Below are positions 23,364 to 37,639 of a stretch of 64,000 nucleotides of DNA, piece by piece. Below the pieces are notes generated by a model, which was not told the DNA's origin, ran no database searches, and worked only from the letters and a program-made list of their open reading frames with translations. Within the stretch, counting starts at the first letter, position 1. Each line of letters begins with the position of its first letter. The DNA is from Psilocybe cubensis (Eukaryota). Location: NCBI GenBank assembly GCA_017499595.2, contig CM038999.1, forward strand, positions 1,860,001-1,924,000, in the 5' to 3' direction. Both the position numbers and the translations under genes were made by a program.

Positions 23364-23879
23364 TCAGAGTTCAATATTATCGAAAGCGTCTTCAACCTGT
23401 CCCCGATGAGCTCTCCCGATTCTGCCGTTCTGATTTGACTGTCTAATGTGAACGTCACGGTGATTGATAACAACGTTCCAGCCGGCAAAACGAGTTTGTC
23501 CAAGTTGTTCCACTATCGAAACACTGCGATGCTTTCCTAATTCGCAAAAGACGCCCACACAGATACTTTGTTCGCCAGTGAGTTGGGCTTGTTGAACGCG
23601 AGCACTGATGAGGGCGCATATTTCGTGAAACCGCCTTTGAACATCATCGTTGGACAGAAATGCATCCCTCAGTGTCTTGGAGAGACCTGTATGGCCCGTT
23701 CTGAGTTTTTTTGGAGGGTTGGGCAATTTGCGACAGTCAAATGATAGGTCAGGGGCTGGGACGAGGGGGCCGCGACGGTGACCATAAGAAGTGACTTTTA
23801 TAATTGGTAAATCGTCTGCGACGGTTGCATAATTGGTGTTCTTGAATATGTCTGGAAGGTGATTATCGTCGTTTGACAT
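23364..23879 (-). CDS. Stand-alone RapZ (YhbJ/YvcJ) C-terminal-domain-like protein, intronless
   Basis: VTSYGHRRGP...DLSFDCRKLPNP...GHTGLS...VGVFCELGKHRSV...INHRDV follows the RapZ-CTD pattern SFGFKxG...FDVRFLPNP...TG...GCTGGxHRSV...HRD. Confidence 0.7.
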   Translation of the reverse strand: MSNDDNHLPDIFKNTNYATVADDLPIIKVTSYGHRRGPLVPAPDLSFDCRKLPNPPKKLRTGHTGLSKTLRDAFLSNDDVQRRFHEICALISARVQQAQLTGEQSICVGVFCELGKHRSVSIVEQLGQTRFAGWNVVINHRDVHIRQSNQNGRIGRAHRGQVEDAFDNIEL

Positions 23880-24026
23880 AACTTTGAAAGTAAGTCAATG
23901 GTCCAATTATTATGTCATGCTTTCAAATTCGAGTTTGTTGCCATGGGAATAAAATGGACATAGTGGCTGTCTGTGGCTGTACTATGGTTGAAAGTAAGAA
24001 GTTGGTCCTGCATTTAGAATTTATCT

Positions 24027-31437: not shown

Positions 31438-31622
31438 TTGAAGTTATAGTGCATGGAACTGGACTCAAGGTCTGATGTATATTACAATCTCTGTATCGAT
31501 ATTATTGCCCAAACACATTACAGAACTTACCTCAACTCAAGGATGCCTCGTAGAGGTTTTTTAAGGCAACTGATGGCGTCATCTCCTCTGATCCCCTGCC
31601 TGCTTGGCGTAGAGGTTAATTA

Positions 31623-32211
31623 TCAGAACGGGACCGCAGTAGCAGCTAATCTCGTGACGGGATGGAACGGCGCAAACTTCCAGAGACTAAGATAAATTGG
31701 TTAGCTGTTCATCTTCGTGCAAAAACGACTGTTGTACCGTGGGTGGACTGCGGCAAGTTCAGGCAGCGCCTGAATCGCTTCTGGGGTGACTGGTGGCCAA
31801 TATTGGGAAGTCTGCAGATCATGGTGTGAAATACAAAACCTACGCCAAAATTCATTGCTTGTTTGGCGCAACAAGTAACAGTGCTTACGGCAGTAAAATC
31901 GAGATCTCAACCCTTGATCCAAACCAGATCATACTTTCTACAGAAGTATCAATTTTCTGGGCTTCGAATGGGTCAAACAATGTGACGCACCTCTCACAAG
32001 CACGCTCAATATCTCGTCATCTATCGACTTCGGCAATGCGTCTCCTTTGAACTTGGAAATCTTGTATGCCTAAATGAACAAGACAAAATCTCATGAAGCT
32101 CGGACTGACCTGTGAATGCAACACATTGGCGGTGTTCAATTCCATGTTCTTTAAACTGTACTGGAGGTCCTTGTGACGGTATGTTTCAGGAGTCTGAACT
32201 TCCAGAGTCAT
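31623..32211 (-). CDS. Possible small orphan spliced gene (~131 aa) or gene remnant
   Basis: Five putative exons joined by four ~50-nt GT-AG introns stay in frame: MTLEVQ...HSQ|AYKISK...LVR|ESMIW...LLP|FCISH...HPR|LWKFAP...VPF*. No family recognised. Confidence 0.3.
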
Positions 32212-33075
32212 TCATTAACCTCGGAAACGTAGACATGTCGGCTTGCCTTGGTCCACTCTCCAACTAAGACGAGCAACGATTCAAGATCCTTTCGAATTTT
32301 GACCGGAGCTTTGTTGGTCACGACAGTGGCCGAGTCAGTGCAGTGAAGTGCGATTGCTTCTAGAAACATATCATCCCCTGCACCGTTGTGATGTTAGTTT
32401 GAGAATTTGCTGCCAGTCTTCTCACCCCACCTTCAAGATGCAAGGCAAGCAAATTGCAAACTGTCTCGACGTACATCATAAAGGAAGAAAACTCTGGGTG
32501 TCGATCGCTTATTTTGGGGGCCACATCATATATGATGTTCAGTGCCCGAATGAGAGCATTCTATGTCGCAAACCTTGTTGACATTTACACAGGAAACAAT
32601 CAACATGCAACATGATTACCTTCATGAACGCATTTTGATACAGTAGGGCATCACGCTCTCTGTAAATGTTTATTAGCAACAATCGGCCCTTATTCCACCA
32701 ACGTTGCTCACTTCATATTCTGCAAGTTGTCCGGAATGGTGGGGAGAAGTTGAAGAGGAAACATTATGCAAATATCCAACGTGGTGGTCAGGAATATGGG
32801 TTTTGGGGATACATTGGGTTTTCTCCGCCCTATTTAGCATTTTTCTTCATTGTGGTAGTGGCCACGGTGGCACGTTCATCCCCTTTTATTGCCAACTCTG
32901 TGACCAAAGAAGTGCTCTCACTGCCCATCACGATTCATTGACCCTTGAAGGCATTACCCACCTTCATTCTGATCGCCGCATAATTCAAAAAGCAGTGGAC
33001 AATGACAATGGTCATTTACGTTATATTTTCACCTCCAGATGTATTTAAACAGGAAATTCCTTCCACTCTTTCTTC

Positions 33076-34009
33076 TCAATGGAATCCAGTGAAATTTAGT
33101 TCGTGGTCCAGGCGATGCTTCAATCCCCACTCCCTGATCTTATCATAATTCCGACACTTGTGCATAATGTTGCCCATTATTCGCACCTCCTGGACGCGAT
33201 CAACCCACTGCCACACCAGAGGTGTAACATCAGCAGAGCACATCAAAGATTGGCGGATATTTTCAACGCAATGGTCTAGGTGCTGTCTATTCATGTGCAT
33301 TCCTTCTTTGTAGTATTCTGGATGAAGGGCCTTTCGCAACATATTCTGCCAGAAATGGTAAAGAAAGAGAGTGAGTGAACAGGTACATCAAAGACCTACC
33401 AAACAATGTAGTTGGTGAAAGACATCAAGGTGAACAACGTAATGTTTTTCATCCCCTGGCAACCGATAGGTTTGGTTCACAAGCTTTGAGGCTTCCTCTT
33501 TGGTGATCTTCGACACTCCAACTGATTCGAAACAATTTAGTGTGGCCCGCAGAATAGAATAAAGAAGGCCTCATACAATCATACAAGTCTTCCCAGGCGT
33601 CGTCAACCTCTGGGGAGGGGGCCTGCTGATATAGGCTGACGTCCGAACCGAAACCTTCATGGAATACCCTGTTTTCATACGTGATCAAATGTTGAACAGG
33701 GGCTTCACCACTGGTTAGCGAAATACGAATGGTGTTTACAGGAAGCGCGGACAACGCACAATACAGATACGTTGAGGATACATCGATATGATTGAAATAG
33801 AAACCAATTGCTCCGCCAATTAGCATTGCCAAAAACAAAAATTGCAGGAACAACGCTACTCGTAGCAGACGAATTTTGTGAAGGCACTTGGAGTCTGAAC
33901 AAGGAGTCTGCGGCGTTGAGCAGTCATCGGAGGTGAGAAGGGAAAGGTTTTCCAATGAATCTTGGGGCATAGAATGATAAGGCGATTCGGACTTTATTGC
34001 CATACCCAT
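33076..34009 (-). CDS. UstYa-like (DUF3328) oxidase, 255 aa, 4 exons
   Basis: Exons 34009-33760, 33702-33577, 33521-33400 and 33345-33076. N-terminal TM segment, then YSP...PSPEVDDAWEDL, LDVFHQLHCLNMLRK, HLDHCVENIRQSLMCSADVTP and HKCRNYDKIREW. The two HxxHC motifs are diagnostic of DUF3328. Confidence 0.93.
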
Positions 34010-34851
34010 GGGCAAAGGGATGGTCGAATATAAAGTATAGTTCTGGTTATATATTGGTGCAGTCTGATAGAATGGGGTCTGCTCTTGCCAGGTGGTGCAC
34101 GGAATCCAGTAAGGTTGGACAGAGAATCTGATTTGGACGTTGAAGCTGGTATCTCGTGGTCTCTGTTCACCGCCCATGGCGGAGTAGGCGTACTCGTGTA
34201 GACGGGATGAATGATCATTCGTGGCGATAAGGAGTGCCAGGAAGCATAAAGGGCAGGATCGAAGCCATACGAACAAGTAGATAGAGGTTGATCGTTAAGC
34301 TTTTGTTCTTGTAGGCCTTGGGACAAAGCAGAGGTAGCAGATATTCACATACTGAATGAAAAATATCTTGTGAAACAAACGCCCATTTTGGTCTCCTGAA
34401 TGTTGAAGTTGTGTGTGTGAGCACTTGACGGTTGATGATAACTACTGAAAATATGTGTATAGTTCGGCCAGGTGCCGCAAAGAATAATTTTGCAACTTGT
34501 GTCCTACTGGTCACATACTGCAGACGCATTGAAAGGCAAACCTAGCTTCGAAACTCGGGGTAGCAGAACTAGTACATACATGTAGACTGCATGCCCATCC
34601 TTGAAAATTTGCAGACCTTCTTTGACGCGCTTGGTAGATGGATATCACCCAGGAAGGCCTACAATGCGGGGTTTGCATATTTTGGCGCCGAAGTCCAAGG
34701 CCGATGAGTTTGGGATCGAAAAATGGAGCAGTCAGGTGGAACAGACAATGTCGAAAGAGTAGAGGCCTGGGTTCCGACCAAAAAACGTATAAAGGTAACA
34801 CAAAATTTTGTAATTGAACCATCTTGTTATCTGTATCCACCAGCAGGTAGA
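34010..34851. promoter_or_regulatory. Putative bidirectional promoter of the DUF3328 and precursor genes
   Basis: Head-to-head arrangement, with TATATAA on the minus strand at 34047-34053 and TATAAA on the plus strand at 34788-34793. Confidence 0.45.
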
Positions 34852-35864
34852 ATGAAGGCCTTCAACACACTTTTAGTTTCTGTTTTGCTCACCGCAACAG
34901 CCAATGCGGTGCCTATGGTGAGCCAGTGTTGCCATACCAGTGGGAACTGAATATCAATCCTTAAACTCAGGGAGAAATTCAAGCGCGCAGCAGCCAAGTT
35001 TCCCAGCGAGGAGAGGCAACTGTAGGCGCAATCAAGCCTGGCAGTTTATTGAGCTGACCGATTTTCACAGGCTGACAATGCCGTCGCACCACAAGCATGG
35101 AGCGGCTACAACGAGAGACGCACCGAAGAGGCCTCAGATGTAGGTCTAAACACATTCTCTGTTTAAAGATACGCTAATATCGCTAAAGGCTGACAACGCC
35201 GTTGCCCCGCAAGCCTGGAGCGGATACAACGAACGTCGCAGTAACACAGAAACATCGAATGTGAGTGAGAGAGCCTAAAATCGTGAATGTCGTTTAACTG
35301 GGAGCTCAAAAGGCCGACAATATTATAACACCACAGGCATGGAGTGAGTACACCGAGAAACGCGCTGAGGAAGCGTCGGAGGTGCGTTGAGGCCCAGGCT
35401 GTTTGAAGCGAAAGTAACCTAGAGCGACCCTCAGGCCGATGACGCTGTTGCTCCTCAGGCGTGGAGTGGATATGCCGGAAGGAGCTCTGAAGAAGCTTCC
35501 GATGTACGTGTCCAACAGCTCGATAGATCACAGAACTCATTGATAGCAGGCGGATAACGCTGTCGCACCTCAAGCTTGGAGTGGATACGCCGAAAGACGC
35601 GCCGTAGAGGCCTCCGATGTAAGTGGTACTATCACCATTTAACTGTGATGAGTACGAGCTGAGCTGATATATTAGGCCGATGATGCTGTTGCACCCCAGG
35701 CCTGGAGCGGCTACGAAGAGAAGCGTTCTGAAGAAGGAACTTCGGAGGTATGGATTATACCGTTGGCTACTCTGATTGAAAAAACGTGCCTGATGTCGGA
35801 TCGTTGTAATTAGGCTGACAACGCAGTTGCCCCGCAAGCTTGGAGTGGCTACGAGGAGGCATAA
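34852..35864 (+). CDS. Secreted Kex2-processed repeat protein / dikaritin-type RiPP precursor, 195 aa, 9 exons
   Basis: Signal peptide MKAFNTLLVSVLLTATANA-VPM. Exons are 34852-34917, 34971-35021, 35071-35139, 35189-35260, 35313-35381, 35435-35503, 35550-35618, 35676-35747 and 35814-35864. Seven repeats AD(N/D)AVAPQAWSGYxE, five followed by RR/KR, are separated by acidic spacers. All 8 introns are GT-AG and phase 0. Confidence 0.9.
35071..35864 (+). repeat. Seven-unit exon+intron tandem repeat (~115-140 bp period) of the precursor core
   Basis: GCNGAYRAY...CCNCARGCNTGGAGY recurs at 35071, 35189, 35313, 35435, 35550, 35676 and 35814. Confidence 0.9.
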
Positions 35865-36456: not shown

Positions 36457-37639
36457 TTAGCAAATTGCACAACAACCCCAAGATTTACTGTCCTCGTCTT
36501 GTGGCAAAGTGCCTTTTCCACTGCTCCGTCGACGATGATGCTTGCTAGAATCCGAATTTTGAAGGTGACTCGGAGCTCCATCTCTCATGAGCATGCTCGC
36601 TCTCGTTGCCGTTTCAAAGACGTCGTCCACGCCTTCAATCTTCAAAGCGGAACATTCTTTGTAGGCACGAGCGCCAATGATGTTGGCTACGCGTTCGCCT
36701 TGTTCTCGGGTTACCCATTGACGGGGATTATCAGGTGCACTTGGTTCATCGTTCGACGGTCGAAGATCAGCCTTGCAACCAACCAGGATAACTGGAACCT
36801 GTGGACCACAGATGCTGCGGACCTCTTCAATCCACTGAACTCGGTGTTAATTACGTCATTGTAGATGGATGAGCAAGATTTACATTACCTTTGTCGTAAC
36901 GTTATCTAAAGAATCAGGAGTATCGATGGCGAAGGCAATAAGAATAACATGAGACTTTGAGTATGACATGGGTCGGAGACGCTGACAGAGTAAAAAGTAG
37001 GACATAAGCTCTAGGAAGAGGCATCGTGAGAGATGGCGAGACAGACCTCGTACTCCTCTTGTCCACTGGTCGATCCGAATAAGAGGGCGGTGAGATAGTA
37101 AAAGAAGAAAGCGGAGGCGTGACATACGCAGTATCCCACAAGGCCAATTGGATGGGCTTCTCGTCGAGCCTGATTTCGGCTACATAGTTATCGAAGACGG
37201 CTGCAACGAGGCGAGGTAACCGAATGAGAACCACCGATATCTGATTCACCTAGCGGATTGAACATACTCGGTTGCTGGACACGCGCGGCGCGGCGAGGAG
37301 GTTAGGGGATGGAACGAGGCAGAAGAGCAGAAAGGACACACATATTCCTTGGGAAACTCTCCAAGGGCAAATGTGCACAAGAGAGAGGTCTTTCCGCAAG
37401 CACCTGTGCATGTCAAGACTTAGGCTTCAGCTAGTCGATGCAGCACGAATACATGCCATCGCCGACAATGACGAGTTTCCGTCGAATCTGGGAGAGGAGG
37501 GTGAGCGCGGAAAAGAGAAAAGAAAGAAATACATACGGGTGTTTGGTTGGACATTCGAGGATGGTTGGCGACGAAGAGAGCGCTGAGGGTGGACGTGGAA
37601 GTAGTTTGCGGAGAGTGTTGTCCGAGCAGACATCGGCAT
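36457..37639 (-). CDS. RHO2: Rho-family small GTPase, Rho2-like
   Basis: [55 protein letters not shown] and LVGCKADL motifs. The C-terminal CAAX-like end is CCAIC*. Confidence 0.85.

Follow-up and report, generated by a model that had tools for sequence, protein, structure and literature searches.

A spliced repeat-peptide precursor gene head-to-head with a UstYa/DUF3328 oxidase gene in Psilocybe cubensis: a candidate dikaritin-like gene pair in a mushroom

Analysis of a 64,000-nucleotide stretch of the Psilocybe cubensis genome (assembly GCA_017499595.2, contig CM038999.1, positions 1,860,001 to 1,924,000; hereafter, the window) revealed two divergently transcribed genes that face each other with 842 bp between their start codons. 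One of the two encodes, as judged from its sequence, a DUF3328/UstYa protein that is intact, carries the HxxHC(x)nHxxHC motif and has a single membrane helix near its N-terminus, whereas the other, a real, spliced, expressed and previously unannotated gene, encodes a short protein that begins with a signal-like segment and contains seven repeats built around the peptide PQAWSGY. At the sequence level, the locus thus combines a DUF3328 protein, a Kex2-processed repeat protein (KEP) in this genome and the precursor-plus-DUF3328 architecture of the dikaritins, and we lean, with limited confidence, towards interpreting it as a two-gene, dikaritin-like pathway, that is, a functional oxidase–precursor pair. 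An earlier note on this DNA, made from its letters alone, had described the two genes as divergent and about 840 bp apart, which the measured distance bears out, and had assigned the DNA to a mushroom. The best matches of the UstYa protein, from Flammula and Panaeolus, and of the neighbouring Rho protein, from Psilocybe cyanescens (91%), likewise identify the host, by sequence, as an Agaricales mushroom close to Psilocybe.

The precursor gene (34852-35864, forward strand) consists of nine exons that are spliced into 588 nt, corresponding to 195 residues and a stop codon. The exons are short (51-72 nt) and the length of every one is divisible by 3, so that the eight introns (46-66 nt, all GT..AG) are all in phase 0. 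The protein comprises a 22-residue signal-like start, a 17-residue non-repeat stretch and seven repeats of 23-24 residues, each encoded by an exon of its own. The N-terminus (top 11-residue Kyte-Doolittle mean of 2.27, at residue 7) is a putative secretion signal, given the hydropathy heuristic and the same layout in a relative from soil described below. Splicing was assessed by comparing the window with three public sequencing runs (X1, X2 and X3) from among five found in two studies, none of which is recorded as RNA: X1 is a contig set of transcriptome size that, like X2, is guessed to be RNA, and X3 is an assembly of DNA size. The X1 contigs contain joints at all eight predicted precursor introns, as well as at introns of the UstYa gene and of the neighbouring Rho gene, the precursor and UstYa joints reading GT..AG or, on the opposite strand, CT..AC, whereas in X3 a 5.5-kb stretch is covered by one collinear piece with zero joints. 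Because canonical intron joints are present in X1 and absent from the DNA run X3, we take X1 to be derived from transcripts. The X2 run, in which the precursor is uncovered and the UstYa gene is found only in low-depth unspliced pieces, was not used as evidence. The 195-residue protein and the sequences of its seven repeats are exactly those given in the earlier note, and the spliced transcript with nine exons and an intron after each repeat, which that note had predicted, is present in X1.

The repeats are held together by their core. Positions A1, D2, P7, Q8, A9, W10, S11 and Y13 of the repeat alignment are invariant in all seven repeats, PQAWSGY is found in six of them, and the pattern P-Q-A-W-S-x-Y is common to all. 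Over the seven core codons and 21 repeat pairs, there are 75 synonymous versus 6 nonsynonymous differences, compared to 39 versus 84 in the ten linker codons; within a 13-codon block, identity at the third position is 0.41 versus 0.93 at positions 1 and 2. This codon comparison reveals strong purifying selection on the core at the peptide level. Given that the introns within the window are also unalike, without obvious mutual similarity, the repeats appear to be old duplicates that have remained identical only in the core peptide. Dibasic sites (RR or KR) are present in five of the six window linkers, the fourth linker reading G-R-S instead; every window linker, like all relatives described below, retains a basic residue after Y-x-E. 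Trimming of the STE13 type, at X-A/X-P dipeptides, was considered and rejected: the spacing from the basic site to Q is 13 or 14 residues, and most of the dipeptides are unfit. The core itself appears to be new, as had been claimed, the string QAWSGY being absent from the main texts of open-access papers and preprints.

A hidden Markov model (HMM) of the repeat, searched against 1,835,955,588 representative proteins, retrieved no full-length annotated homologue of the precursor and three matches at E <= 0.001 (P0010-P0012), all of which are short Logan open reading frames (ORFs) consisting of one repeat exon and intron read-through. These fragments read A-D-[DN]-A-V-A-P-Q-A-W-S-G-Y, followed by EKR in P0010 and P0011 and by a single R in P0012. 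A word-based search of longer proteins with a 42-residue unspliced piece yielded three candidates, none of which obtained a score, and hence no annotated full-length precursor. With zero full-length annotated homologues and three unspliced fragments in the protein library, gene callers therefore seem to miss the precursor gene, in agreement with what had been proposed for this locus, and the organization with one micro-exon per repeat suggests why it has been overlooked. A pattern scan of metagenome contigs returned at least 119 stretches, 118 of which are single pattern matches without tblastn similarity to the precursor. The sole true relative among the matches listed is L023, a 1685-bp contig from a soil metagenome, on which five pattern matches follow each other at intervals of about 113 bp. 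The gene on this contig starts with a signal-like exon, followed by a pro-region exon that contains RR and KR and by at least six repeat exons, with an intron after every repeat; the repeats read ADAAIVPQAWSGYAERAVAD, with one variant, VNLPEAWSGYTERAVAD. L023 keeps PQAWSGY exactly, but its promoter, signal peptide, linkers and introns differ so far from those of the window that there is no DNA similarity between the two outside the core-coding parts. Hence, PQAWSGY is conserved across a large evolutionary distance. All five complete linkers of L023 contain E-R only, and none has a dibasic site. The conserved downstream signal is accordingly Y-x-E-R, and cleavage may be monobasic; judging by these sequences, the dibasic linker sites present in this genome are not kept across the precursor family. 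The label ‘Kex2-type’, which the earlier note had attached to the repeats, therefore suits five of the six window linkers but neither the complete linkers of L023 nor the fragment P0012, where E-R alone is found.

The soil relative also differs from the window in the way its repeats have evolved. In L023 (1-610, reverse strand), the repeat units hardly differ from one another even in their introns, a sign of recent duplication or concerted evolution; in the window, by contrast, introns are unalike and synonymous sites are near saturation. One gene family thus displays two evolutionary modes.

The UstYa gene has four exons and encodes 255 residues. X1 contains joints at two of its three introns, namely 33522-33576 and the in-frame 57-nt intron 33703-33759, the latter of which overturned a three-exon model of 274 residues. 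The third intron (33346-33399) is not among the 15 X1 joints listed (17 in total) but was accepted because the Pfam profile passes seamlessly from 137 to 138 across it and HQLHCLN-LRK is unbroken in eight homologues. The 255-residue spliced product with HQLHC and HLDHC that had been put forward earlier is thereby recovered, and all three of its exon pieces compared match PF11807 in order (profile 15-91, 96-137 and 138-219 of 220), with E-values of 6.8e-8, 3.9e-7 and 6e-23 and scores of 33.1, 30.6 and 82.3 bits (gathering cut-off, 25). The two motifs are 22 residues apart, and their H and C positions are (nearly) invariant in comparisons with 8 and 11 homologues; RQSLMCS and HxCR are also conserved with eight homologues. 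A hydrophobic helix (residues 51-69; 19-residue Kyte-Doolittle maximum of 2.27 at residue 51) follows a poorly conserved N-terminus of about 50 residues, and the start codon at 34009 fits the homologue N-termini. The full protein is 64% identical to a protein of Flammula alnicola, 61% to one of Panaeolus cyanescens, 51-53% to Laccaria-cluster and Ephemerocybe proteins, and 41-45% to proteins of Lentinula, Gymnopus and Colletotrichum. For the last exon, identity rises to 75% (Flammula), 72% (Panaeolus) and 94% (a Logan fragment). A PDB sequence search with the orthologue P0001 yielded only chance-level matches to Lon protease (E >= 0.057), that is, no solved relative detectable by sequence, and an AlphaFold2 monomer model of the orthologue P0003, built from an 11-row alignment, was too poor for use (mean predicted local distance difference test score, 49.7; predicted template modelling score, 0.28).

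What is known of the family comes from other members. CctR has a cytosolic disordered N-terminus, one membrane helix and a lumenal domain; its HxxHC(x)nHxxHC motif forms a binuclear copper centre, and the protein occurs as homodimers on the membranes of Golgi, endosome and vacuole (Huang et al. 2025; PMC12435403). By sequence, the window protein has the same topology features and copper-site motif. Activity that depends on copper and O2 and a disulfide-linked homodimeric state are further traits of the family. In vitro, DUF3328 activity employs a dicopper site and O2 and creates the ether between Tyr-O and Phe-C-beta in asperipin-2a (PMC12186524, in a passage citing the work).

Two side observations concern the distribution and the start of the UstYa gene. 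Psilocybe cyanescens is absent among the nine UstYa matches, although it provides the best match for the Rho neighbour; the gene may be absent or unannotated in that species, which hints at a patchy distribution. The X1 contig that covers the UstYa gene extends to 34274, and translation from an in-frame ATG at 34177 would lengthen the protein by 56 residues; homologue N-termini favour a start at 34009 or 34003 over 34177.

If the two genes indeed act together, the precursor would enter the endoplasmic reticulum and Golgi and meet the oxidase in the secretory pathway. There, the membrane-anchored, lumen-facing dicopper oxidase would oxidize the core, most likely forming a side-chain cross-link that uses the Tyr phenol. 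Proteases would cut at the basic residue after Y-x-E (RR/KR here, a lone R in relatives) and shorten the ends, so that each precursor would yield as many as seven small modified peptides; a yapsin-type protease could cleave at single Arg. One of the rings of asperipin spans exactly the Y-T-G-Y part of its FYYTGY core. W-S-G-Y resembles that part, and our preferred guess is therefore a Tyr-O to Trp-C-beta ether across W-S-G-Y, with a mass change of -2 Da. Alternatively, the cross-link could be of the aryl type or could join Tyr to the N-terminus of the peptide, the arrangement put forward for epichloecyclins (PMC10540207).

Comparison with known systems brings out both parallels and differences. 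The asperipin-2a cluster of Aspergillus flavus, which comprises the precursor gene aprA, the DUF3328 gene aprY, aprT and aprR, needs one DUF3328 protein and makes use of the core FYYTGY (PMC6514808), is, similar to the pair described here, a small cluster in which a single DUF3328 oxidase gene adjoins a signal-peptide repeat precursor. Its core ends in aromatic-T-G-Y, compared to W-S-G-Y in the window, and asperipin cross-links a Tyr side chain to a beta-carbon (PMC6514808, PMC12186524). Unlike the window pair, the asperipin-2a cluster is ascomycete and contains four genes, among them those for a transporter and a reductase, neither of which turned up here, and its core is devoid of Trp; the two precursors share no sequence similarity. 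Ustiloxin and phomopsin are also produced from repeat precursors in conjunction with UstYa-family oxidases, the repeats being Kex2-delimited and the products being Tyr-based macrocycles (PMC7329392, PMC6514808), but the respective clusters carry 2-5 DUF3328 genes along with tyrosinase, methyltransferase, S41 peptidases and regulators, and the core is Y-x-I-G/P. These accessory families are absent from the ORFs scanned here, and asperipin-2a likewise does without them (PMC6514808). In Epichloe, the epichloecyclin cluster (gigA, gigB, gigC and kexB) similarly combines a repeat precursor with one DUF3328 gene, Tyr is the cyclization residue, and deletion of gigB abolishes all cyclic products; this ascomycete cluster differs, however, in having its own kexin and a SET methyltransferase, and the proposed link is from Tyr to the N-terminal residue rather than an ether (PMC10540207).

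Among mushrooms, the Agaricomycete KEPs (Coprinopsis cinerea 490115, Lentinula and Pleurotus) are signal-peptide repeat precursors as well, and their cores are often Q-first and contain W; they are cleaved at RR but also after a single R, and the products detected in the four species studied are linear (PMC9769878). These proteins possess the STE13-type X-A/X-P registers that are not consistent here, and neither DUF3328 nor UstY occurs in the text of PMC9769878. The KEP type P-3 (#165), recorded from Galerina, Psilocybe, Coprinellus, Fonsecaea and Cladophialophora, has W accompanied by P, with DUF3328 in four of seven cases (PMC7329392). Compared by description only, this type shares W and P with the window precursor and includes genera near the relatives of the window (PMC7329392), so that the two might be related; the window precursor nevertheless probably belongs to a different family, given that no annotated protein, whatever its genus, was retrieved with the repeat HMM.

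A functional pairing has to be weighed, above all, against the view that the precursor is an ordinary KEP-like secreted protein that gives rise to linear peptides (maybe pyro-QAWSGY...) for signalling or defence and that the UstYa gene is a coincidental neighbour, an explanation to which we assign a substantial, if minority, probability. Much of what counts against the pairing speaks for this view. The Agaricomycete KEP peptides detected so far are linear or only pyroglutamylated, many of them carrying pyro-Q (PMC9769878), and Q directly precedes A-W-S-G-Y in all seven window repeats. A DUF3328 gene is found within 15 genes for just 103 of 1680 Basidiomycota KEPs (6.1%), compared to 1647 of 5372 in Ascomycota (~30%), and it has been suggested that cyclization may hardly occur in Basidiomycota (Umemura 2020; PMC7329392). 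A core that is strictly conserved across distant species, being identical in L023, also fits a receptor ligand. DUF3328 enzymes further act on non-ribosomal peptides, such as cyclochlorotine, so that a ribosomal substrate is not required (PMC12435403). UstYa genes are numerous in Agaricales, with 16 in Pleurotus (PMC8893723), and the locus was picked because of the adjacency, which constitutes a selection effect. The L023 contig stops 823 bp upstream of its own precursor ATG, a distance to be compared with the 842 bp in the window, and no UstYa gene is found there. A Trp-Tyr link is without precedent for the DUF3328 family in the literature examined, and the scanned ORFs around the pair, among which short exons can hide genes, contain no tyrosinase, methyltransferase, peptidase, cytochrome P450 or major facilitator superfamily transporter. 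Coincidence, on the other hand, is at odds with the two genes being immediate divergent neighbours: assuming about 16 UstYa genes per Agaricales genome, as in Pleurotus, and ~10^4 genes, we roughly estimate the chance of such adjacency at ~0.3% per gene. DUF3328 gene counts peak right beside KEP genes, at the adjoining position (PMC7329392), the core contains Tyr, the residue of known DUF3328 cross-links, in an asperipin-2a-like aromatic-S/T-G-Y context, and no gene for a non-ribosomal peptide synthetase or other candidate UstYa substrate is found among the ORFs scanned.

A further explanation, which we consider improbable, is that the repeat protein is secreted whole and remains uncut, its repeats being structural, as might hold for an acidic protein of the cell wall or matrix. 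The linkers are acidic and disordered-looking, and dibasic sites are missing between the repeats of L023 and from linker 4 of the window, all of which would suit such a protein; yet selection is focused on the seven-residue core whereas linkers change freely, the basic residue after Y-x-E persists in the window, L023 and P0010-P0012, and cleavage at single Arg has been observed for Coprinopsis KEPs (PMC9769878). A functional oxidase–precursor pair is the interpretation we favour. The full proposal is more demanding, namely that the locus makes the first basidiomycete RiPP (a peptide that is made ribosomally and then altered post-translationally) of the dikaritin type, by means of two genes, a single dicopper UstYa, a Tyr-Trp cross-link (ether to Trp C-beta, or aryl-aryl/aryl-N) and, in some species, monobasic, Kex2-independent release; we put it forward tentatively and regard it as rather unlikely in all its parts.

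Coordinates of the features of the gene pair (positions in the window)
Feature	Position	Strand	Description
UstYa/DUF3328 gene	33076-34009	-	4 exons, 255 residues; from X1 joints, Pfam and homologues
UstYa exon 1	33760-34009	-	N-terminal region and membrane helix (residues 51-69)
UstYa exon 2	33577-33702	-	X1 joints 33702/33760 and 33521/33577
UstYa exon 3	33400-33521	-	ends in first HxxHC (HQLHC); Pfam profile 96-137
UstYa exon 4	33076-33345	-	second HxxHC (HLDHC), RQSLMCS, H-x-C-R, stop; Pfam profile 138-219
Divergent intergenic region	34010-34851	.	842 bp; X1 contigs enter from both genes, ~34392-34575 uncovered
TATAAA	34788-34793	+	64 nt 5' of precursor ATG
Precursor exon 1	34852-34917	+	signal-peptide-like N-terminus, 22 residues: M-K, ~15 hydrophobic residues, A-N-A
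Precursor exon 2	34971-35021	+	17-residue non-repeat pro-region; X1 joints 34917/34971 and 35021/35071
Repeat exon 1	35071-35139	+	ADNAVAPQAWSGY and NERR linker; spliced model and X1 joints
Repeat exon 2	35189-35260	+	RR linker; spliced model and X1 joints
Repeat exon 3	35313-35381	+	variant core PQAWSEY, KR linker; spliced model and X1 joints
Repeat exon 4	35435-35503	+	linker G-R-S, without dibasic site; spliced model and X1 joints
Repeat exon 5	35550-35618	+	RR linker; spliced model and X1 joints
Repeat exon 6	35676-35747	+	KR linker; spliced model and X1 joints
Repeat exon 7	35814-35864	+	end ...SGYEEA, then stop; spliced model and X1 joints

The intergenic region contains a TATAAA element that is likewise present at -65 in L023, and its occurrence 64-65 nt before the ATG in both sequences therefore supports the chosen start codon of the precursor. 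The X1 contig with the spliced precursor has its upstream end at 34590, some 260 nt ahead of the ATG, and the segment 34590-34851 includes six upstream ATGs, one of them, at 34723, in frame and positioned such that it would bury the signal peptide. The TATAAA conserved in L023 suggests that the main start site of the precursor is downstream of these ATGs; a longer upstream-initiated transcript or an assembly merge is possible for 34590-34851.

No second UstYa gene and no second precursor were detected by tblastn of both spliced proteins against the 64-kb window. Tail-to-tail downstream of the precursor is a gene for a Ras-family GTPase, several matches of which are named Rho small GTPase, whereas upstream of the UstYa gene, about 1.6 kb of transcribed DNA precede an Isa/HesB-like gene (Fe-S_biosyn, E 0.089). 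The earlier placement of the pair between Isa2 and Rho2 is thus clear on the Ras/Rho side, but on the other side the Isa-like call is weak and the gene is removed by the intervening 1.6 kb. Within 31450-33075, no Pfam match was obtained for the eight ORFs examined, and X1 pieces are located at 32232-32470 and 32712-33332; an odd X1 joint, 32656/32712, has non-canonical ends (TC..AC) and 3 extra letters. This segment could be a small unannotated gene, an intron of an untranslated region or an assembly chimera. The Pfam scan covered 30 of the 61 stop-to-stop ORFs of at least 90 residues at 22-47 kb and 10 shorter ORFs at 30.9-33.0 kb, and yielded matches to G-patch, RapZ-C-like, Ras, mitochondrial carrier and an amino-acid permease fragment, as well as a Zn-cluster/Fungal_trans regulator about 8 kb from the pair. 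As far as visible, the pair is surrounded by housekeeping genes and has no companions among them. In Ephemerocybe angulata, the UstYa homologue D9611_000059 (3.7-Mb contig; orthology doubtful) and the Rho orthologue D9611_004038 (1.8-Mb contig) are on different contigs; in this comparison of synteny by locus tags, no Rho proteins of Panaeolus or Flammula were among the matches listed.

Two observations concern the surrounding genes. In the Rho gene (36983-37342, reverse strand), two joints seen in both X1 and X2 have 17 and 7 extra letters, which suggests micro-exons of 17 and 7 nt inside gaps of 144 and 141 nt. The ORF piece 23364-23891 (reverse strand) matches the RapZ C-terminal domain PF22740 (E 3.4e-23), which, by its name, we take to be a bacterial RNase adaptor protein family, here encountered in a mushroom genome.

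The earlier note had announced a new RiPP system, which overstates the case: pairs of KEP and DUF3328 genes in Basidiomycota have already been counted, in the 103 cases mentioned above (PMC7329392). The locus is a new dikaritin-like candidate, well supported as a gene pair, and not a new kind of system. We found no characterized basidiomycete dikaritin in open-access main texts and preprints. Genome-mining tools call many ‘fungal-RiPP-like’ clusters in mushrooms from DUF3328 alone, and it has been cautioned that such calls should not be relied on before the precursor is annotated (PMC11455885; bioRxiv 10.64898/2026.09.14.751415). The pair described here provides a tangible example from a mushroom: its precursor is identified, spliced, expressed, under selection at the peptide level and located directly beside the oxidase gene, and its one micro-exon per repeat illustrates why such precursors escape annotation. 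Should the peptides be linear, the locus would be a clean negative example for calibrating mining rules. If, conversely, a modified product is made by the pair, it would bring mushrooms into the range of the dikaritins, and the chemistry of DUF3328 enzymes might gain a Trp-based cross-link.

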